Shown here piece by piece: positions 980-52,458 of a DNA stretch of 64,000 nt. The stretch is from the sequence record PQ900156.1. One strand, given 5' to 3'. Position 1 is the first letter of the stretch, and the number at the start of each line of letters is the position of its first letter. This stretch comes from Escherichia phage vB_EcoP_ShWW44. Under the pieces are notes generated by a model. That model ran no database searches. It was not told where the DNA came from and saw only the letters and a program-made list of their open reading frames with translations. The translations under genes were made by a program, and so were the position numbers.

Positions 980-1005
980 AGCCCTCCTTAGCGAGGGCTT
1001 TCTTG
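980..1005 (+). terminator. intrinsic terminator
   Basis: AGCCCTC-cttagc-GAGGGCT hairpin followed by TTTCTT. Confidence 0.6.
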
Positions 1006-1024: not shown

Positions 1025-1339
1025 ATGGCGCAAAAATTGCGTGTATGGCACATTCCCCAAGTGCCAATGAAGGCATTTCAAGTAGAGACTAATAGTCTTC
1101 AGGAAGCTGTTAAGATTAAGAATGCGTTAGCAGATTATGATCTATTCCAATATGAGAACAATGTCAAAGGCGATTATGCTAATGCTAACGGTATTGAGAT
1201 GTGGGATGAGACTATCTCCGATCAAGAACTAGTGGAGATGGGTTTAGAAGACCGTTGGGTAGATTGGTATATTGAAACTGAAGATGGTTTCTTTGATGAC
1301 CCAGAAGAGTATCTGAATTATCTAATCAAGCAAGTATGA
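1025..1339 (+). CDS. hypothetical acidic protein (104 aa)
   Basis: ORF with AGGAGAG RBS; Asp/Glu-rich. Confidence 0.6.
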   Translation: MAQKLRVWHIPQVPMKAFQVETNSLQEAVKIKNALADYDLFQYENNVKGDYANANGIEMWDETISDQELVEMGLEDRWVDWYIETEDGFFDDPEEYLNYLIKQV

Positions 1340-1385: not shown

Positions 1386-1415
1386 GACCTCCCTATTAAA
1401 GGGAGGTCTTTTTTT
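1386..1415 (+). terminator. intrinsic terminator
   Basis: GACCTCCC-tattaaa-GGGAGGTC hairpin followed by TTTTTTT. Confidence 0.7.
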
Positions 1416-1440: not shown

Positions 1441-1653
1441 ATGTATAAAGAGATTGCATTCTTCTCATTCTTACTTGGTGGTTTAATAGGTGCAGGATTT
1501 GTAGCTATTTCTAATACCTACTTTGGTTCTACTCCAAACTCTGTAACTCAAACCCTCAAGCATGAATGTGAATTGAATATCCCTCGTAATCAAAAATGTG
1601 TAATGCAGTTCGTACCGGAGAAAAATGAATATCCACAATCTACGTTTGGTTGA
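1441..1653 (+). CDS. small membrane protein (70 aa, one N-terminal TM helix)
   Basis: Hydrophobic segment FFSFLLGGLIGAGFVAI. Confidence 0.45.
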   Translation: MYKEIAFFSFLLGGLIGAGFVAISNTYFGSTPNSVTQTLKHECELNIPRNQKCVMQFVPEKNEYPQSTFG

Positions 1654-2067: not shown

Positions 2068-2397
2068 ATGAAAACTTTACTTAAAGGTATTGCAGTAGCT
2101 GCGCTGATAGCTTTGGTTCCAAATGCACAAGCAGTTAAACCAGAACCAATTCTGGAAGGTGCTCAGGCTTACCTGGATGACACCCGTGATGCATTCGGAC
2201 AAGGGTTCTTCATGGGCAGTATGATCTCTTACATCGAGAACACAGATAACTGTGTACCGGATGGTATGAAGTATTCAGACATTCTGCCTAAGATTGCCAA
2301 AGTAGTTATTTATGACTCTGCAATCCTCAAATTGAAGAATACATCCCAAATTGTTGTGTACTCAGTACACAAGGCATATCCCTGCACCAAATCTTAA
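2068..2397 (+). CDS. secreted/periplasmic protein with N-terminal signal peptide
   Basis: MKTLLKGIAVAALIALVPNAQA has the n/h/c layout of a Sec signal with an AQA cleavage motif. Confidence 0.55.
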   Translation: MKTLLKGIAVAALIALVPNAQAVKPEPILEGAQAYLDDTRDAFGQGFFMGSMISYIENTDNCVPDGMKYSDILPKIAKVVIYDSAILKLKNTSQIVVYSVHKAYPCTKS

Positions 2398-2431: not shown

Positions 2432-3484
2432 ATGGCAAGCATCGACTCCTTGACCGTATGTAATACACGTCAAGCTCGTAACTTTATTATCCGTGCCCTT
2501 AGAGCAGGTAACGTACCGTTCCTGACTTCATCACCAGGAATGGGCAAATCTGCAATTATTCGTTCTGTTGCAGAAGAATTTGGTATGAAGCTGATAGACC
2601 ATCGTCTGTCTACTTCTGCCCCAGAAGATTTGTCTGGATTACCATTCCGTAATGGTGACCGTGCAGAGTTTATCCCATTCGCTGACCTATTCCCCATTGA
2701 AGGGGATGAAGTACCAGAAGGTTATAATGGTTGGCTCCTGTTCCTTGATGAGTTCCCGTCCGCTCGCAAAGAAGTAATAGCTGCTGCATACAAACTGATT
2801 CTAGACCGTATGACTGGTCAGAAAAAACTTCATCCTAACGTGATGATTGTCTGTGCTGGTAACAAAGCTACTGACCGTGCCATTGTTAACCCATTAGGTA
2901 CTGCAATGCAGTCTCGTGTGGTTCACTTTGAGATGGAACTTAACTTCGACATTTTTGTTGAAGACGTAATGATTCCTCAGCAATGGGATGAACGTCTGGT
3001 TGCATTCTTACATGCTAACCCTGGTTATCTGCATGACTTCGACCCAGCTCATAAGAACAAAACGTTCTGTTGTCCTCGTACTTGGGACTTTGTTAATAAA
3101 GACCTCAAGAACTTGCCAGAAGGTGCTCTGCCTGATGAGGATTCTATCTACTATGCAGGACACGTCACTGCTGGTAAGGCTACAGAGTTTGTTCAATTCA
3201 CTCAAGTATACAATCGTATGATTACGATTGAGAAGGTAGTTAAAGACCCACTGGGCTGTGCACTACCGGAGGATAACAACCTGTGCTGGGCTACTGTTAA
3301 CCATCTGGCTAACAAAACTACTGAAGAGAACTTTGCTGATGTTCTTCAGTACATTGAACGCTTTAAAACGTTCACCCATAAGATTCTGTACTTCCGTACA
3401 GTAGGCAATGCATTACCAGATCTTCTGGCTACCCCTGAATGGCGTAAGGCTGCTGCTAATATCTCTCGTTACATTCACGGATAA
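2432..3484 (+). CDS. MoxR-like AAA+ ATPase
   Basis: Walker A SSPGMGKSAI; Walker B LLFLDEF; AGGAGAG RBS. Confidence 0.7.
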   Translation: MASIDSLTVCNTRQARNFIIRALRAGNVPFLTSSPGMGKSAIIRSVAEEFGMKLIDHRLSTSAPEDLSGLPFRNGDRAEFIPFADLFPIEGDEVPEGYNGWLLFLDEFPSARKEVIAAAYKLILDRMTGQKKLHPNVMIVCAGNKATDRAIVNPLGTAMQSRVVHFEMELNFDIFVEDVMIPQQWDERLVAFLHANPGYLHDFDPAHKNKTFCCPRTWDFVNKDLKNLPEGALPDEDSIYYAGHVTAGKATEFVQFTQVYNRMITIEKVVKDPLGCALPEDNNLCWATVNHLANKTTEENFADVLQYIERFKTFTHKILYFRTVGNALPDLLATPEWRKAAANISRYIHG

Positions 3485-3491
3485 TCACAAC

Positions 3492-4667
3492 ATGAACCAA
3501 TTTCCTCAGCACACACTTAGTGATGAACAACTCATGCGTGAGTATGACCGTATTCAGGCTCAGGCGTTTCTCGGAGGCAGTGCTGCGTTCTTTGGTTCAT
3601 TACTGTGTAGTCTTAAATTCTCATGGAAACGCGAGGGTTGCCCCACTGCACGTACTGATGGGATAGAACTCCATTTCAATCCAGACTTCTTTATCTGGAT
3701 GTGTCCAGATGCAAGAGAAACAGTGCTTATGCATGAATTATGGCATGTGGCATATCTACATGACATTCGTCGTGGAAGACGTGACCCAGAAGTCTGGAAC
3801 CAGGCATGTGACCACTTCATTAACCTTCAGTTAGAAGAAGATGGCTACAAGTTCACTGGCATTGATAAAGGTATTTGCAAAGACCCTCAATATAAAGGAT
3901 GGGTCGAAGAAGACATCTACGATGACCTGATGAAGAACCCTCAGAAAAGGCAAAAGCCGTCGGGGGGTGCTGGAGCAGGTCTTGCTGGCGACATGAAATC
4001 CCCCACTTCGGGGCAGTCCCAGGGTGCTGTCGTCAACAACGTAGTACGTGCAATGCAGAGCCAGAAGATGGCTGGTGGACAGATGCCCGGTAAGGGTGCT
4101 GGTCGTATGGAAGAGGTTATTACCCAATTCCTTAAACCAGTAGTTCCCTGGCAGGAAGTTCTGATGAACTTCTTTACCGACATTGATGACACCCATTATA
4201 CGTGGGCCAGACCTAATCGTCGTTACACTGACATCTATCTACCTTCCCTGGAAGATGATGAAGGACGTTTACGTCACTTAGCATACTTTGAGGATGTATC
4301 TGGTTCTATTAGTGGTGCTGACTCTCTGCGTTTTAACTCAGAGGTTGCCTACGTTAAGAGCCAGTTCAATCCTAAGAAGATGTCCTTAATTACCTTCGAC
4401 GATATTATCCAAGAAGAGATGGACATCACTGAAGAAGATACTTTCGAAGAAATTAAGATTACAGGTCGTGGTGGTACAAACCTTGAACCAGTACGTGAAT
4501 GGATTATTAAGAATAAGCCAACCGCTGCAATCATATTCTCCGATATGTATGTTCGCCCAATGGAAGAATTGCCATTTGATATCCCTATCATCTGGTGTGT
4601 TCTAAATAATCCTAATGCTACCGTACCTTTTGGGGAGGTAGTTCATATCCCTAAAGGAATGAAATAA
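3492..4667 (+). CDS. VWA-domain protein with N-terminal HExxH metallopeptidase-like domain (partner of the AAA ATPase)
   Basis: HELWHVAYLH motif; start set to first ATG after the ATPase stop (track ORF begins at 3408 inside the ATPase gene). Confidence 0.6.
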   Translation: MNQFPQHTLSDEQLMREYDRIQAQAFLGGSAAFFGSLLCSLKFSWKREGCPTARTDGIELHFNPDFFIWMCPDARETVLMHELWHVAYLHDIRRGRRDPEVWNQACDHFINLQLEEDGYKFTGIDKGICKDPQYKGWVEEDIYDDLMKNPQKRQKPSGGAGAGLAGDMKSPTSGQSQGAVVNNVVRAMQSQKMAGGQMPGKGAGRMEEVITQFLKPVVPWQEVLMNFFTDIDDTHYTWARPNRRYTDIYLPSLEDDEGRLRHLAYFEDVSGSISGADSLRFNSEVAYVKSQFNPKKMSLITFDDIIQEEMDITEEDTFEEIKITGRGGTNLEPVREWIIKNKPTAAIIFSDMYVRPMEELPFDIPIIWCVLNNPNATVPFGEVVHIPKGMK

Positions 4668-5392: not shown

Positions 5393-5406
5393 GTAGCTGC
5401 CTAGAT

Positions 5407-5430
5407 AGCCCAACTATGTTGGGCTATTTG
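5407..5430 (+). terminator. probable intrinsic terminator
   Basis: AGCCCAAC/GTTGGGCT hairpin followed by ATTTG. Confidence 0.45.
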
Positions 5431-5465
5431 CGAAGAAACTAACTCAACCCCACATAGGAACCATC

Positions 5466-5717
5466 ATGGAATCTTTAGCAGCAATCCTTGTACTGTTGTT
5501 TGTATTAGCCGTATACCTTATCCCTACTATCATTGCTTTTGCACGAGGTCATGCCTCTAAGTGGGGTATTGGTGTGCTTAATATCGTATTAGGCTGGTCA
5601 CTGGTATTTTGGGTAGTAGCACTTATTTGGGCACTGTCTAATAAAGGAACTACAATCGTTAACGTTGGCAGTGGTAACCAGTACAACGTGTCTCAAACGA
5701 GCAGCAAAGCAGAGTAA
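5466..5717 (+). CDS. superinfection-immunity (Imm)-like two-TM membrane protein
   Basis: 83 aa, two TM helices; LIPTIIAFARGH...LNIVLGWSLVFWVVALIWAL resembles the Imm family pattern. Confidence 0.6.
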   Translation: MESLAAILVLLFVLAVYLIPTIIAFARGHASKWGIGVLNIVLGWSLVFWVVALIWALSNKGTTIVNVGSGNQYNVSQTSSKAE

Positions 5718-5790
5718 CTAATCTAAGCATCATTAATAGGGTGCTTGTGGAAGTTACTTCCAGCTCATTGCTTATCCATCTCCTAACCCA

Positions 5791-5816
5791 AGCCCACCTA
5801 ACCCGTGGGCTTTTTT
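5791..5816 (+). terminator. intrinsic terminator
   Basis: AGCCCAC-ctaaccc-GTGGGCT followed by TTTTTT. Confidence 0.65.
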
Positions 5817-5862
5817 AATTACAGGTACTTCTTATGACAAACAGACGAATGGTAAGTCTATC

Positions 5863-6211
5863 TTGTATGGGCTGGACTTAAGTAAGCTAGAACAAACAGC
5901 AATGCTTACTTTAGGTAAAACTATCCATGACCAAGTGGAGAATGAAAATGTATTAGATCTTTACACAACAATGCAGGTTCTTGTTCAAAAAGATGGACTA
6001 CTAGCAGACCTTTTCCTTCATACATTCCCCCAGAACCGCATCTGAAATCTAAGGTAGACCGTATCATAGATAAGTTCTGGCTTAGCCCGTGTTATGACGA
6101 AATGCATCTTTACTTGGCTCAAATACAAAAGAATCCTTATACCAAAGATGTATTTAAGGGTAAGAGTACTACTCACCACTACCCCTGGTATAGAAGAGGT
6201 AGCAAATACTA
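5863..6211 (+). pseudogene. possibly frameshifted gene: ORF 5863..6045 continues in another frame to 6211
   Basis: Frame of 5863..6045 stops at 6043-6045; an ATG-less open frame runs 5946..6211 and ends overlapping the next start; homopolymer CCCCC at about 6026-6030 lies in the overlap. Confidence 0.3.
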
Positions 6212-6655
6212 ATGCGTATCCCATTCCTGAGAAAAAGGGAACGAAATCCTGTTCTTTACAATAAAGGCATAGAGGATGAGTATGAACTCAATCGTAAAGC
6301 TCGTTCCTACACAACAGAATTATTCATAGGGACTAGAAATCCTGATAGATTATTGGACTTTGTTTTTGAACAAGTCTTTATCATATACAGATTAGCTATG
6401 ACTGCTGGTTCACAAGAAGTGGGTGATAAGGCAAGACATGCTCTCTGTATGCTCCGTAAAGAGTATGAAGCCCTCATGTATGAAGACTTGTACTCCTTTA
6501 AAGAAGAAACCGCTGTAGCGTGTTCTGTGGCTCTTACTGAAGGTGTAGCAGTATTACAAGAACTACCTCGTAGTGAGTTTAAGCTGGTATACGCTCAGGT
6601 TAAGAGAATCACAGAGACGAGAAGTGGTATCACTAACTATCTAAGGTCATTCTAA
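6212..6655 (+). CDS. hypothetical protein (147 aa)
   Basis: ORF; stop overlaps thyX-like start. Confidence 0.55.
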   Translation: MRIPFLRKRERNPVLYNKGIEDEYELNRKARSYTTELFIGTRNPDRLLDFVFEQVFIIYRLAMTAGSQEVGDKARHALCMLRKEYEALMYEDLYSFKEETAVACSVALTEGVAVLQELPRSEFKLVYAQVKRITETRSGITNYLRSF

Positions 6656-7599
6656 TGATTAAGGCATCAGTTATTGCAGATTCCGTTCATCCAGAAACAG
6701 GAACTCGTATCACAACCTTTGAATTGGTTTATCCCCGATTCATTCACAGTGAATTTATGACTCACCGTGTATTCAACCGTAATGCTTCAAGTAGCCGTGC
6801 TATTCCTACTTCTAAATTAATTGAACAGGTTCGTAATGAACCAGTGATGCCAAGTCACTGGGGCAAGAACCAGAAAGGTATGCAAGCAGAAGAAGAACTC
6901 ACTCCTATGGAGATTGAGGATGCTAAGTTTATCTGGGATAACGCTGCATCTGCTGCTGCTGTGTACGCTGAACAGCTACGTCGTGGACAAGTACATAAGC
7001 AAATTGTTAACCGTATTCTGGAACCCTTCACACATATCCGTGTAGTAGTAACTTCAACTAGCTGGGCTAATTTCTATGGACTGCGTGACCACAAAGATGC
7101 ACAACCAGAGATTCGTGAACTGGCTCAAGCAATGCGTAAGGCACATGAAGAAAGCACACCAAGAGCATTACCGTATGGGCATTGGCATTTGCCATATATT
7201 GCTCATATTGACCGTGTTGGGGCTTACAATTTCTGCAAACGTAATCGAGTTACACGCGATGAACCAAGTGATGCAGAAGTATATGGCTTACTTCTCAAAG
7301 TAAGTGCTGCACGCTGTGCTCGTGCTTCTTATAACAACTTTGAAGGACGACCTTCTACTATCGAAGAAGACCTTGGCTTATTCGCTAAGTTAGTAGAAAA
7401 CCAACCTATTCATGCTTCACCAACGGAACATCAGGCTACGCCTATGAACCTTGGTGAAAAATATGTGAATAACATGAACCCAGTTACATGGGAACAAGGT
7501 GTTACATCCATGGATAAAGAAGGGAATCTGTACTCAGGTAACCTGCTCCACTTTATCCAATTCCGTAAATTAATTCCTGGTGAGACTATTACTGAATGA
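6655..7599 (+). CDS. thyX: flavin-dependent thymidylate synthase (ThyX)-like
   Basis: FMTHRVFNRNASSSRAIP fits the ThyX (R)HR-x7-S...R signature. Confidence 0.5.
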   Translation: MIKASVIADSVHPETGTRITTFELVYPRFIHSEFMTHRVFNRNASSSRAIPTSKLIEQVRNEPVMPSHWGKNQKGMQAEEELTPMEIEDAKFIWDNAASAAAVYAEQLRRGQVHKQIVNRILEPFTHIRVVVTSTSWANFYGLRDHKDAQPEIRELAQAMRKAHEESTPRALPYGHWHLPYIAHIDRVGAYNFCKRNRVTRDEPSDAEVYGLLLKVSAARCARASYNNFEGRPSTIEEDLGLFAKLVENQPIHASPTEHQATPMNLGEKYVNNMNPVTWEQGVTSMDKEGNLYSGNLLHFIQFRKLIPGETITE

Positions 7600-7834
7600 A
7601 AAACTAGCTCTATACGCAATGCTAATTAGTACCCTACTAACACTGACCTACGCATACAAAGTTGCCTTTGTCGTAGAAACAGATATGCAGTTCATTCGAG
7701 CTAGTATTCTGTTCTTTGTAAGTGAAATTGGTTTGTGGTGTATCTACTACTTTGCTCGTGACTACGAAGCAATTCGTGAGCAGGAAGAAGTAAAAAGACA
7801 AATGATACGATTTGTAGAACAAAATCGTAAGTAA
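7580..7834 (+). CDS. small membrane protein (84 aa, two TM)
   Basis: Hydrophobic segments LALYAMLISTLLTLTYAY and ILFFVSEIGLWCIYYF. Confidence 0.45.
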   Translation: MRLLLNEKLALYAMLISTLLTLTYAYKVAFVVETDMQFIRASILFFVSEIGLWCIYYFARDYEAIREQEEVKRQMIRFVEQNRK

Positions 7835-7839
7835 ACCTA

Positions 7840-7866
7840 AGACCTCCTCCGGGAGGTCTTTTTTTG
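7840..7866 (+). terminator. intrinsic terminator
   Basis: GACCTCC-tccg-GGAGGTC followed by TTTTTTT. Confidence 0.7.
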
Positions 7867-41510: not shown

Positions 41511-41954
41511 TTAACGAGTTAGCTTGTTAGCTGCAATGTAAGCATCAGCAGTAGATTGGTCACGGTTCTCTGCTGTAGCACGGCTACGAGCACGGTCTTC
41601 CAGCGCAGTGTTATAAGACTTAATCTGGTTGTTCAGGTTAGTGTTAGTAACACTCTTAGTAAAGTTCAACTGGTCTTTGGCTAACTTATTGGCCTGAAAA
41701 CCACCATAGATATTAGCTAATGAACCAATAGCACCTAGTCCTAACTGGAAGGTTGGTACGTTCAGACCCAACTGATTAGCTGAACCAGACAGGAAAGAAG
41801 TAGGGGTAGATGCACCCAAATTAGTACCCATACCAATAGCTGCACCTGGGTTATAGTTCATAGCTGGGGTATTAAAGTTCTGATTGTTATTAGACATCCA
41901 AGACATAGCAGCTGGCTGTGGGGTTTGGTTGCCTGTTAAGAATGACAAATCCAT
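41511..41954 (-). CDS. virion protein, hypothetical (about 148 aa)
   Basis: Start trimmed to ATG with AGGAGA RBS (track start is TTG). Confidence 0.5.
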   Translation of the reverse strand: MDLSFLTGNQTPQPAAMSWMSNNNQNFNTPAMNYNPGAAIGMGTNLGASTPTSFLSGSANQLGLNVPTFQLGLGAIGSLANIYGGFQANKLAKDQLNFTKSVTNTNLNNQIKSYNTALEDRARSRATAENRDQSTADAYIAANKLTR

Positions 41955-41967
41955 GGGGATTCTCCTG

Positions 41968-44622
41968 TTAAACAAGGTCAGTATTAAGGGTCATGTCAGA
42001 GAAGCTGCCAACCATGTTTAAAGACATGTCAGCTATATCTGAACCAGTCATGAGAGTACGTGACAGGAATGAATCCATTGACTCCATTGACACGAATTGC
42101 ATTGGGTCAATTACACCCTGTCCAGCAGTACCAAACATTTCTTCATACTGCTTATTGATTGCCATCATATCAGTATTGTACTGCTGCATTACACTCTCTG
42201 CTTTCTGAATAGTAGCAGCCGTAGATGCATTAATATACTGACTAATACCATTACCTACTGAACTGGTAAGCTGCATGATGTTTTGGGCATTCATCATTTC
42301 ACCGGCTAAGGTAGATAATGATGTACCAGTAGACATAGCAGTACCAACATTCATAGCTACCATTGAAGCAATTGCAGCAATAATAAAGCCTAGTTTGTCG
42401 CCAAACAGTGAAGTGGATACTTTAGTAATAATGGATATCAGAATCATTGCAGCAATGGCATTTGCTACAGCACCAACTATCACGGCAGCTAATCCAGCAA
42501 ACCCAAGAGATGCACCAACTGCACCATATGCTCCAAGTATACCTGCACCACCAGTACCCATAGTGAATACGGATACAACGACTGCAACTACAACCACCAC
42601 AATCTTAAAGGCAGATGTTTGATACCACTTCTGCTTAACCTTCTTATATGAGTTCATCACTAAGTAGGAACAGGCAGTAGATAATTGAGTACTTCGAACC
42701 AGTGACATTGAACGGTAGATGTTAGTGTGCAGTGGAATAATAAATCCACTCTCTTCTGCATCACCCATTGCCTCAGCAACATCAATGTGCACTGACTTAT
42801 TCTTATATACCCAGTTATTGTGGTTTAAACCTAGTACTCTGAGTTTACGGTAAGTGTTATTACCATCCTGCCAGAGTAACTCATACTCCTGCATAGAGTA
42901 GAATGTATATGTAACCTCCAGCTTCTTAACTGAACCTGAGTTACTAGCAGTATGTATGTTCTTGCGAGTAAGGGTTATATCTCCTGCATATCTGGCTCGA
43001 AGTTGTCCCTGCTTAGCACCAGACCATGCTTGCCCTGAGTGAGTAGTTTCAGATACATAGTTCCAGCCAATAGTCATGTCATACTTGTACTGCTTATTAC
43101 TATGTACCCTAAACTCTCGCTTAGGTATGACTGGGTATTCTGGTAGTGGAGGAGGTGTTCCAACAATCTGACCTTCCTGCCTGTTCCACCATTCTACATA
43201 AGCATCGACTGCATCATTAGCTGCCTGATAGCCTGCAATTACTGCTTCCAGTGTCGGGTAGGTTGGGTCAGGTGGAAATGCTTCAGTAGCCATCTGAAAG
43301 AAACGGTAGATGTATTCTTTAGCAGTATCCTCTGGGGTATTAAGAGATACACCGAATGTGCCATAAATGTACTGAATATCACCTATGTGATCATTCTTCT
43401 TAAGCTCTGTCACTACCTTATCGATTTTTCCACCAGTAGCTTTATAAAGAGCCTTTTTACAGTGAGGGTAGATTGAGTCATTCTCTACCCACTGTTTATC
43501 GTTCCTGATTGGAATGAATGGGTAGAATCGGTTATCAGTAGCCTCAGTATTAAACAGTGAGTCTAGAGCAACGTTACCAGAGTTCTGCTTATAGATAAGC
43601 ATCTTAGGTGTACCTACAGCAGTCATCTCAGTATCAGTACGAGTAGTCTGGGATGAGTACTTACGAACCAGTGTCTCTGTAGTTGTAGTAATTGTATCGG
43701 TACGGGTAACACCACCACCTATATCAACTACATTAGTTGTTACAGTAGTACTGGACTGAACCTCACCAAACTTTTTATGGGTCATTACCCTGTCAGATAC
43801 AACTACAGTTACATCATCAGGTTTCTCAGTGAATCCCTTACGGTAAACCTTAACGTAAGAGTTCCAGTTATCCACACTTGGTTCGGTGACAGTACTATCT
43901 TCATCCGGTCTACCATCAGAGTAAACAGAATGAGTATGTATAGTCTTAGTAAGATTGGTTGTATTAGCTGTTGTATCACTTGATACGGTAGTCCATAGCA
44001 AAGTGGAGGGTAAGTCATCCTCACTATCATAGACAGTAGTCGGTCCTACTACAGGTGGATTAGTAGATGGGGACTTATAGAATGAGTAATCAGCATAGAG
44101 ATACAAAGCACCTGGTTCAAAGTTAGTAGGTGTGAATTTAATAGTGGAACCTCCATCCAGAGAGGTCATAGTAATTTCATTGGTATCTTCATCAATGTCT
44201 ATGTCGAATCGTTCCATGATTCGACTTGGAGCATTCTCATAAAGATACTGGTCACACCATTGCTCAAAGTCAGCAAAGCCTATCTCTGCTGCCTGAACAT
44301 AAACGGATTCCCCAGCAGGTGGTGTAATTTGACCCTCTATTACAGTAGGGTCAATCTTAGCCAGTACACCTAATGAAGAACCAGCCATACCAACTTCTGA
44401 ATCATAGTGGTTCTTACTCCAGCTGGAGAACAGTCGCATACGAATACCCGGCCCATTCAGATAACTATCAGAGATAGTGTCTGCCATAGTGAATCCTGTA
44501 TTGGAAACAATGTTACCAATGACTACAGTCTTCATATAGTTTGGGCGTTTGTGTATATCCCCTGCCATGTTATAGACAGAGGATGCTACGTATACTTTAG
44601 TCTTCCCACTGAATAAGCCCAT
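41968..44622 (-). CDS. large virion protein with C-terminal hydrophobic Gly/Ala-rich segments (possible ejection/channel protein)
   Basis: 884 aa; C-terminal about 150 aa contain several TM-like Gly/Ala/Val-rich helices. Confidence 0.5.
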   Translation of the reverse strand: MGLFSGKTKVYVASSVYNMAGDIHKRPNYMKTVVIGNIVSNTGFTMADTISDSYLNGPGIRMRLFSSWSKNHYDSEVGMAGSSLGVLAKIDPTVIEGQITPPAGESVYVQAAEIGFADFEQWCDQYLYENAPSRIMERFDIDIDEDTNEITMTSLDGGSTIKFTPTNFEPGALYLYADYSFYKSPSTNPPVVGPTTVYDSEDDLPSTLLWTTVSSDTTANTTNLTKTIHTHSVYSDGRPDEDSTVTEPSVDNWNSYVKVYRKGFTEKPDDVTVVVSDRVMTHKKFGEVQSSTTVTTNVVDIGGGVTRTDTITTTTETLVRKYSSQTTRTDTEMTAVGTPKMLIYKQNSGNVALDSLFNTEATDNRFYPFIPIRNDKQWVENDSIYPHCKKALYKATGGKIDKVVTELKKNDHIGDIQYIYGTFGVSLNTPEDTAKEYIYRFFQMATEAFPPDPTYPTLEAVIAGYQAANDAVDAYVEWWNRQEGQIVGTPPPLPEYPVIPKREFRVHSNKQYKYDMTIGWNYVSETTHSGQAWSGAKQGQLRARYAGDITLTRKNIHTASNSGSVKKLEVTYTFYSMQEYELLWQDGNNTYRKLRVLGLNHNNWVYKNKSVHIDVAEAMGDAEESGFIIPLHTNIYRSMSLVRSTQLSTACSYLVMNSYKKVKQKWYQTSAFKIVVVVVAVVVSVFTMGTGGAGILGAYGAVGASLGFAGLAAVIVGAVANAIAAMILISIITKVSTSLFGDKLGFIIAAIASMVAMNVGTAMSTGTSLSTLAGEMMNAQNIMQLTSSVGNGISQYINASTAATIQKAESVMQQYNTDMMAINKQYEEMFGTAGQGVIDPMQFVSMESMDSFLSRTLMTGSDIADMSLNMVGSFSDMTLNTDLV

Positions 44623-51335: not shown

Positions 51336-51863
51336 TTATTCCTGTTCAAAAAGTTTACGGTCAGCCTGAATCTGTTTACCCAACTCAATTAGTTGGCTGT
51401 CACGGAGTCTAACAGTTGCCCGGAGTTCTTCAACCAAACGTCTGCCTTCTTCAAGACTGTTGTCGAGTCTGGCTGCATGGCTTGCAAGACTTCTGCACTC
51501 AAGGGTTCCGGCTTCGGCTTGACGTTTATATACCGATGCTCGCCTTTCAGACTGTTGCATCCGGCTGTCGTAATCACTGCTAACGCGAGCAAGCTCGCTT
51601 GCGTAATTACTCTCAGCCGTCTGCAACCGGGAAGTGAGTAACCCGACTTCATAACTATGGTTTCTTTGGAGAGCATTGTATTTGTCCTGTAATTTTTGTA
51701 TTGCCTTTTGGTCTTCAACCTTTTGGTCATCCCATTTCTTTTGAACAGTAGACTGTCCATTGGAATTACCCCAAAAGTAAATGGTGGCCCCTAGGACCAC
51801 CACCAGAAGATAAGGCCAACCTTTAGAGATTAGCATCTTCATTACATGCCTCCAGTGGCACAT
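51336..51863 (-). CDS. i-spanin (Rz-like): N-terminal TM plus periplasmic coiled-coil
   Basis: [18 protein letters not shown] then charged helical region; start may be an internal ATG (about 51842 or 51836). Confidence 0.55.
51389..51652 (-). CDS. o-spanin (Rz1-like) lipoprotein embedded in the i-spanin gene in another frame
   Basis: Signal with RRLR n-region, [12 protein letters not shown] lipobox-like, Pro-rich mature part KPKPEP; start set to internal Met of track ORF 51389..51760. Confidence 0.5.
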   Translation of the reverse strand: MKSGYSLPGCRRLRVITQASLLALAVITTAGCNSLKGEHRYINVKPKPEPLSAEVLQAMQPDSTTVLKKADVWLKNSGQLLDSVTAN

Positions 51864-52458
51864 TGCCTATTCGGTTAGCTACCCAACCATATGTAAAGTC
51901 TGGCATGTTTAATGAGGTGTAGTGGTTCAGTTGTTTGGCATCAAGTAACTTAATCATTACCTTACATGCTGCAACTTTGCCTCGTTTTTTCTGTAATGCT
52001 TTATATGCATTAACAGTACTTGCACCGACTTTACCATCAACCTGTATTTTAGGGTAGTCTTTGCCATCACGGGACATTTCATTAAGAGATTGCTGTAACC
52101 ACTTAGCCGGACGAGTTACACCAGTGTTAACACCAGCATCTACCAGCTTGTGTGTTACAGCAGGAGATATATCAGCGAAGGCTACGAAGTTAGGCTTAAG
52201 TACATAGTCATCAATGTATATCTCAGCAGCCATCTCTTTAGATAAACCTTTCATAGAACCATCCCAACCATACTCAGTAGCCAGAACTTCTTTGTGAGAT
52301 TTAGCTACAGATTGAGTAATGCCATGATTAGTTTCCCCACCTGGGTCACGAGGATTGTTTACATATCCCCCTTCCATATAGAACACTGCCCCCAGGATAG
52401 CAGCGACAACTCCTCCCACTGTACCACCTTTCGCAGCAAGTTTCTGTTTAGCTTTCAT
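51823..52458 (-). CDS. endolysin, GH108-type muramidase with possible SAR signal-anchor
   Basis: EGGYVNNPRDPGGETNHGIT motif; N-terminal Gly/Ala-rich weak TM GGTVGGVVAAILGAVFY. Confidence 0.65.
   Translation of the reverse strand: MKAKQKLAAKGGTVGGVVAAILGAVFYMEGGYVNNPRDPGGETNHGITQSVAKSHKEVLATEYGWDGSMKGLSKEMAAEIYIDDYVLKPNFVAFADISPAVTHKLVDAGVNTGVTRPAKWLQQSLNEMSRDGKDYPKIQVDGKVGASTVNAYKALQKKRGKVAACKVMIKLLDAKQLNHYTSLNMPDFTYGWVANRIGNVPLEACNEDANL

Follow-up and report, generated by a model that had tools for sequence, protein, structure and literature searches.

An Imm-family protein and an exported protein of predicted Rap1a/Tai4a fold encoded by a G7C-like Escherichia phage

Background

Among phage proteins that prevent a second infection of the same cell is the small membrane protein T4 Imm; the helical-bundle domain of gp29, the tape measure protein, co-purifies with it, and the substitutions R33A and W50A lower exclusion (preprint 10.64898/2026.03.06.709160). 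Its N-terminus, according to the same preprint, is periplasmic. A comparable role has been proposed for HK97 gp15, a membrane protein thought to block genome entry via the tape measure protein (preprint 10.64898/2026.03.06.709160). HK97 gp15 and T4 Imm thus indicate that the entry-block strategy is used by unrelated proteins. T4 also produces Spackle (Sp), a periplasmic inhibitor of the gp5 tail lysozyme.

Small exported proteins of a different kind are the Rap1a/Tai4a immunity proteins, whose targets are peptidoglycan endopeptidases delivered by type VI secretion. The active site of one such enzyme, the DL-endopeptidase Ssp1 of the Tae4 family, is blocked by Rap1a, which is made with a signal peptide of 26 residues, folds into five helices and contains a disulfide bond between C78 in the α2-α3 loop and C122 at the C-terminus, a bond deemed necessary for correct folding (PMC3852654).

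The apparatus through which N4-type phages deliver their DNA has recently been described. [quoted passage not shown] According to a preprint on N4 lysis, N4 has no characterised superinfection-exclusion system, and lysis inhibition is reportedly absent in the related phage G7C (PMC12642591).

Here we analyse two small genes in a 64,000-nt stretch of DNA (hereafter, the window) from Escherichia phage vB_EcoP_ShWW44 (PQ900156.1). From comparison with the systems above, we consider it reasonably probable that the first product, an Imm-family protein, would block the entry of superinfecting genomes at the inner membrane, and that its exported neighbour would be a separate endopeptidase inhibitor of the Rap1a/Tai4a fold.

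Results and discussion

Phage and genome setting

By megablast, positions 1-25000 of the window are 94.4% identical to phage St11Ph5 at 100% coverage and 93-94% identical to other Gamaleyavirus genomes at 98-100% coverage. Judged by its sequence, the window is a G7C/St11Ph5-like Gamaleyavirus, an N4-like podophage of the family Schitoviridae. Its genes include those for a virion RNA polymerase of 3,601 aa, a portal of the SU10/N4 type and proteins homologous to gp51, gp52 and gp53 of N4; the homologues of gp51 and gp52 are close ones, as is that of gp50. Being a podovirus, the phage lacks a tape measure protein; no match to such a protein was obtained in any of the virion ORFs scanned. The features discussed below are collected in Table 1.

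Table 1. Positions of the features considered, numbered from the first nucleotide of the window
Feature	Position	Strand	Remarks
Terminator-like hairpin	980-999		
ORF, PF17420 family	1025-1339	+	104 aa; N4 gp18 homologue
Terminator-like hairpin	1386-1408		
ORF, predicted membrane protein	1441-1653	+	70 aa; phrog_7508
Rap1a/Tai4a-fold protein (predicted, exported)	2068..2397	+	109 aa; slot of G7C gp17.3; five helices
Swapped cassette	2101..2373	+	aa 12-102 (late signal peptide and nearly all of the mature protein); blastn vs G7C
Hairpin between gp27 and Imm genes	5402..5430	+	13-bp stem, 3-nt loop, no T-run
Shine-Dalgarno sequence AGGA	5456-5459	+	6 nt before the Imm ATG; read from sequence
Imm-family gene	5466..5717	+	83 aa; ATG start; orthologue of G7C gp27.1 and St11Ph5 gp27.1
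Intrinsic-terminator-like hairpin	5790..5817	+	8 bp, 5 G-C pairs, then TTTTTT; terminator scan
Segment before gp29 homologue	5828-6196		about 370 nt
Short ORF	5863-6045		
Short ORF	6094-6264		
ORF, predicted membrane protein	7580-7834	+	84 aa; phrog_12633
Bidirectional terminator	7839-7860		strong
N4 gp52 homologue	41511-41975	-	
Spanin	51336-51863	opposite to Imm gene	lysis cassette
Endolysin	51823-52458	opposite to Imm gene	GH108 muramidase

The 83-aa product belongs to the T4 Imm family

The sequence-only reading had described the 83-aa product as a protein with two transmembrane segments and had assigned it to the Imm family, proposing a profile search as a check. The motifs on which it relied are present (...IPTIIAFARGHASKWGIGVLNIVLGWSLVFWVVALIWALSNK...), and the protein is hydrophobic at aa 1-28 and 33-60, the two stretches being separated by the basic loop R27-G-H-A-S-K32, in which R27, H29 and K32 are the basic residues. 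The Pfam family PF14373 (Imm_superinfect) matched with E=6.9e-17 and 61.5 bits, where the gathering score is 27.9 bits, and aa 16-57 align to the complete profile (1-42 of 42); for T4 Imm, the founding member of the family (NP_049660, from NC_000866), the score is 58.2 bits. A match to PHROG 1039, "immunity to superinfection", was obtained with E=9.5e-29, and BLASTP aligned the product directly to T4 Imm over 45 ungapped residues with 31% identity and 60% positives (E=4e-9). With the full-length profile match and this direct alignment the assignment holds, and by sequence the 83-aa product is a member of the T4 Imm family. In the PDB, a sequence search returned only noise (a lectin, E=0.03) and no recognisable Imm-family chain.

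T4 Imm is of equal length (83 aa), likewise has a pair of hydrophobic helices with an R-G-x-x-S loop between them, and is also encoded by a virulent coliphage beside genes of nucleotide metabolism and replication. It differs in that the N-terminal helix is six residues shorter in the window protein and in that the C-terminal tails are unrelated. An alignment of 17 sequences (16 Gamaleyavirus-type alleles and T4 Imm) contains 11 invariant columns, namely P20, I23, A24, R27, G28, S31, I35, W44, W49, I54 and W55. With an alignment offset of 6, R33 and W50 of T4 correspond to R27 and W44, each of which is invariant in 17/17 sequences, so that the functional surface has probably been retained. The AlphaFold2 model, built with 16 homologues and of moderate confidence (pLDDT 67), predicts helices at residues 2-26 and 32-60 followed by a disordered tail at 64-83. 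Among homologues the hydrophobic core is preserved, and it is this tail, rich in Gly, Asn, Ser, Thr and Gln, that varies, so that alleles are 67, 80, 82, 83 or 86 aa long. Pairwise dN/dS values against St11Ph5, G7C and two metagenomic relatives range from 0.02 to 0.19, from which we conclude that the gene is under purifying selection.

The Imm gene lies within a plus-strand block of nucleotide-metabolism and replication genes, with stable hairpins on both sides. The upstream hairpin (Table 1) folds with -17.4 kcal/mol (z=-5.4), and none of 200 shuffled sequences was equally stable; the G7C record carries an annotated stem_loop in the equivalent position. This structure is a candidate terminator (e.g. 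for phage RNA polymerase II), processing site or stabiliser. The downstream hairpin, which at 5790-5812 excludes the T-run lying beyond it, begins 73 nt past the Imm stop codon and folds with -12.5 kcal/mol (z=-4.1).

The segment that separates the Imm terminator from the gp29 homologue (Table 1) has no counterpart in G7C and is shared with St11Ph5, where one 47-aa hypothetical protein is annotated in it; the region contains short ORFs only.

Distribution and existing annotation of Imm

Orthologues of the Imm gene are found between gp27 and gp29 in St11Ph5 (99% protein identity) and G7C (90%). Compared with G7C gp27.1, the window protein has a three-residue deletion (QSQ) and a different end of the tail, which are allelic differences only. 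The RefSeq note to G7C gp27.1 likens the gene to the JS98 Imm immunity-to-superinfection membrane protein, the St11Ph5 gene is labelled "putative membrane immunity protein", and many of the 58 phage records that match the region share a superinfection-immunity label. The family call is therefore correct and not new, having been annotated since the G7C genome record. Also, the gene is kept in an equivalent position in divergent Gamaleyavirus-like contigs, and distant homologues occur in Acinetobacter phages of about 45 kb, in the 52-kb Escherichia phage Mangalitsa and in T4-like phages of about 170 kb.

In N4 the slot is occupied by gp28, an unrelated, non-membrane protein, which was considered as a possible Imm homologue and rejected. 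Since N4 has this unrelated gene in the slot, Imm is an accessory, host-takeover-type gene at the level of the genus and not as part of the N4 core. For both the Imm gene and the Rap1a-like gene described below, conservation and dN/dS led us to reject a chance ORF or pseudogene. Searches of NCBIfam and PADLOC gave no match for Imm, for the Rap1a-like and GP17-like proteins or for the two small membrane proteins discussed in the last section.

How Imm might act and on which phages

We infer that Imm is an inner-membrane protein, as regards both its location and its orientation, and by homology it would stop the genome of a later-arriving phage at the cytoplasmic membrane of the infected cell. 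To do so, it would bind the part of the arriving ejection machinery that inserts into the membrane and forms a pore, which in T4 is the tape measure protein. By extension from T4, a block to DNA entry is most likely what the window Imm provides. Our literature search returned functional data within the many-membered family PF14373 for T4 Imm only, and no exclusion phenotype for any N4-like or Gamaleyavirus Imm homologue.

A difficulty in carrying over the T4 mechanism lies in the target. T4 is a myovirus in which the partner of Imm is the tape measure protein gp29, whereas the phage described here is a podovirus without one, and binding of the T4 Imm partner therefore cannot literally explain self-exclusion. 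The likeness to HK97 gp15, which comes from a siphovirus and is prophage-encoded, unlike the window Imm, is one of described role only. [quoted passage not shown] Furthermore, one of the consequences that exclusion has in T4 would be missing in G7C, for which an absence of lysis inhibition is reported.

The main rival to this account is that Imm does not exclude its own kind and acts instead on unrelated, tape-measure-bearing competitors, such as T-even-like myophages and some siphophages, as a means of interference competition in the gut. The sole demonstrated Imm mechanism is, after all, binding to a tape measure protein, which is absent here, and the residues implicated in that interaction in T4 are conserved. 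Imm genes are also found in very different types of phage, suggesting a portable module that spreads horizontally, and St11Ph5 comes from horse faeces, a source from which T5-like coliphages have been isolated as well. Lu and Henning reportedly found T4 Imm to be narrow in its action, affecting T-even phages, which points to co-adapted specificity, and the core of the window protein is only 31% identical to T4 Imm. With these points against it, we regard exclusion of competitors as unlikely.

Still more doubtful is a membrane role apart from exclusion, either in the timing of lysis, as a holin or antiholin might act, or in protection from damage by secondary adsorption. Imm is small, has two hydrophobic helices and, according to a review, "reportedly molecularly resembles a holin", and the latent period under lysis inhibition is shortened in T4 imm mutants (PMC6832632); against such a role, the lysis cassette is about 46 kb away on the other strand, the residues that are invariant are those important for exclusion in T4, and lysis inhibition is reported absent in G7C (PMC12642591).

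An exported protein of predicted Rap1a/Tai4a fold

The 109-aa product encoded upstream of the Imm gene begins with a signal peptide at aa 1-22, recognised from sequence and hydropathy by K2 and K6, a hydrophobic core and the cleavage site AQA|V, and is on this sequence evidence a protein exported to the periplasm. Its gene closes a tightly packed run of four ORFs that follows the terminator-like hairpin at 1386-1408, and the gp24 ATPase gene lies just downstream. The Pfam family PF18602 (Rap1a) matched the protein with E=0.0043 and 18 bits, which is below the cut-off of 27.7, and a sub-threshold match to it was found in 12 of 13 family members, the best with E=5.5e-5. By phmmer, six remote relatives of 25-40% identity were retrieved, and residues G50, C62, A77, P105 and C106 are invariant in the alignment of 13 sequences.

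Sequence searches of the PDB, with the single sequence and with a profile, gave nothing useful, so the connection of the protein to Rap1a/Tai4 is made through comparison of folds only. AlphaFold2 produced a confident five-helix model in which the mature part is mostly above pLDDT 90, i.e. a compact five-helix fold as in Rap1a is predicted. The top four Foldseek matches in the PDB were three chains of Agrobacterium tumefaciens Tai4 and Serratia marcescens Rap1a, with weak E-values and TM-scores of 0.51-0.62, and the remaining matches listed had TM-scores of at most 0.34. Sequence identity to Rap1a (PDB 3ZFI) and Tai4 (PDB 6IJE) is 6-10%. In the model, C62 is located in the α2-α3 loop, between helices 42-58 and 69-82, and C106 three residues from the C-terminus; C62 and C106 have the same 44-residue spacing as C78 and C122 of Rap1a, the bond in the window protein being predicted from the positions of the residues. 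Based on the model, we regard the secreted protein as a distant member of the Rap1a/Tai4a fold. Unlike Rap1a and Tai4, it is the product of a lytic phage, and neither a Tae4 effector gene nor T6SS genes lie next to its own gene.

The label is already in the databases and is not new. In UniProt the proteins of Bp4 and SP5M are named "Rap1a immunity protein domain-containing protein", "tai4" is the label in several recent GenBank records, and a metagenome-derived nr entry is labelled Rap1a-complex. A paper discussing a phage Rap1a-like protein was not found in our literature search.

Two allele classes and a swapped cassette

Rap1a-like homologues were found in 56 phage records, and within the genus their identity to the window protein is bimodal: 22 of the 56 are at least 88% identical, 34 are 35-42% identical and none lies between. 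The comparison with G7C illustrates the difference between the classes, the Rap1a-like proteins being 37% identical and the nearby dCTP deaminases 95%. At the nucleotide level, the blastn match between the window and G7C ends at 2100 and resumes at 2374, with flanks of about 90% identity and no detectable similarity between them; this gap between conserved flanks indicates that a segment coding for nearly the whole mature protein has been exchanged. The two allele classes may differ in specificity, and a swapped cassette together with two classes is the pattern one would expect of a specificity-determining immunity protein. Between Rap1a-like alleles, dN/dS is 0.22-0.46 and dS is 1.4-3.5; because dS is saturated, we make no claim of positive selection.

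All detectable relatives are in contigs of N4-like phages and in the same part of the genome. In three relatives the gene either immediately precedes the gene for the gp24-type ATPase or lies two ORFs ahead of it, and in the most divergent relative it is downstream of a VWA-like gene. The Imm gene usually follows downstream of the Rap1a-like gene, with one locus (L009) having no Imm. No bacterial relatives of the Rap1a-like protein were among the phmmer matches listed or among the best 120 of 125 profile matches, these 120 being all from phages.

What the exported protein might inhibit

As to its mechanism, the exported protein would have a function separate from that of Imm. By analogy with Rap1a, it would most likely bind tightly to a peptidoglycan endopeptidase of the NlpC/P60 type and inhibit it sterically. 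Domains of the Tae4, NlpC/P60 and CHAP types were sought in the neighbouring genes and in 17 structural, lysis, packaging and vRNAP ORFs, and none was found. As no cognate effector is encoded nearby, the Rap1a-like protein is at best an orphan.

Also considered as a toxin effector was the gp52 homologue, for which Ntox22 scored E=1.2e-4 and 22.6 bits against 25. This candidate was rejected, the match being compositional because of the N/Q/G-rich, low-complexity sequence; the protein matches N4 gp52, a 16.5 kDa protein.

Among possible targets we place the T6SS amidase effectors first, a hydrolase of superinfecting phage second and a host endopeptidase, as the less likely, last. According to the first possibility, which we advance tentatively, the protein confers orphan immunity: during the latent period it would shield the infected cell from Tae4-family amidases delivered by the T6SS of neighbours, and the alleles would cover different effectors. 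By its fold the protein is related only to T6SS amidase-immunity proteins, which share its predicted disulfide geometry. The absence of a nearby effector is consistent with an orphan, and the exchange of the mature-domain cassette between conserved flanks and the division into two allele classes are what one would expect of immunity-protein specificity. Gut bacteria are known to have orphan immunity genes on mobile elements. A function intrinsic to the phage, however, would fit better with the finding that the sequence relatives are all in N4-like phages and in one conserved slot; moreover, the benefit of such protection within a short lytic cycle is uncertain, and the literature search found no paper describing it.

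The second possibility is that the protein is an analogue of Spackle, inhibiting a peptidoglycan-degrading activity required by superinfecting virions. The sequence-only reading had proposed it as a second candidate periplasmic exclusion factor. The signal peptide and the predicted periplasmic location stand. The exclusion part did not fare as well, given the Rap1a/Tai4a fold, the lack of a match to Spackle and the lack of a recognised virion hydrolase. In support of the proposal, T4 Spackle is, like the window protein, small, provided with a signal peptide and encoded by a genome that also encodes Imm. The region holds a predicted periplasmic, immunity-like protein together with an Imm homologue, as in the Imm/Sp pair of T4; both genes co-occur in divergent relatives, and the protein is conserved in several N4-like lineages. 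On the other side, T4 Spackle has no sequence match to the window protein and was not among the fold matches, and one locus, as noted above, has the Rap1a-like gene and no Imm. Additionally, the GH108 endolysin is the only hydrolase domain found in the virion ORFs scanned, which included the homologues of gp50, gp51, gp52 and gp53. With no recognisable hydrolase in the ejection proteins and an endolysin of a different enzyme type, a Spackle-like role, which might also involve an undetected or host-supplied enzyme, is weakened; a part in phage exclusion is possible for the secreted protein and is not the best-supported reading, and we consider it improbable that superinfecting virions are its target.

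Implications for both proteins

As it stands, the result for Imm confirms an existing annotation. Its remaining interest lies in the tension between the T4 Imm mechanism and the lack of a tape measure protein, and that of the Rap1a-like gene in the dimorphism of its swapped cassette. The window offers a test case, namely an Imm homologue with the key residues of T4 in a phage without a tape measure protein, for which N4-type ejection structures were described in 2026 (PMC13434306). From the binding partner of the window Imm one would learn whether proteins of this family recognise something that the pore formers of the inner membrane have in common. The dimorphic cassette of the Rap1a-like gene offers a lead on whether lytic phages carry defences against contact-dependent bacterial toxins.

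The most far-reaching combination, in which Imm blocks the N4-type ejectosome and the Rap1a-like protein gives a lytic phage immunity to T6SS amidases, with alleles recognising different effectors, seems to us unlikely to hold as a whole. Were it true, the Imm fold would be a general, retargetable blocker of inner-membrane pore formers and not specific to tape measure proteins, Imm would be the superinfection-exclusion system of N4-like phages, N4 itself having no Imm gene, and the Rap1a-like protein would save the infected cell from being killed by attacking bacteria.

Other accessory genes nearby

The 104-aa ORF upstream of the Rap1a-like gene matched PF17420, "Superinfection exclusion gene product 17" (P22 gp17-like), with E=5.8e-45, and also PHROG 1510. 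It is thus a third gene with a superinfection name, one that the sequence-only reading did not mention; it is flanked by the terminator-like hairpins at 980-999 and 1386-1408, is present in St11Ph5 and is absent in G7C, where blastn leaves 981-1344 unmatched. P22 gene 17 helps P22 to get past the exclusion that a resident prophage exerts; the name of the family may therefore mislead.

Two further predicted membrane proteins are encoded in the region. The 70-aa product has one N-terminal hydrophobic helix, and the 84-aa product has two hydrophobic segments and is directly followed by the strong bidirectional terminator (Table 1). In N4, the slot from gp17 to gp24 contains the membrane protein gp19 and the SPFH/Band-7 lipoprotein gp20. 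Accessory genes directed at the envelope seem to accumulate in this part of the genome.

Between the gp24 ATPase gene and the VWA-like gp25, G7C carries the HNH endonuclease gene gp24.1 (3560-4036 in locus L001), which the window lacks (3484-3510), and two HNH/AP2 genes are present in the gp24-gp25 region of a further relative (L007). This pattern is typical homing-endonuclease mosaicism.
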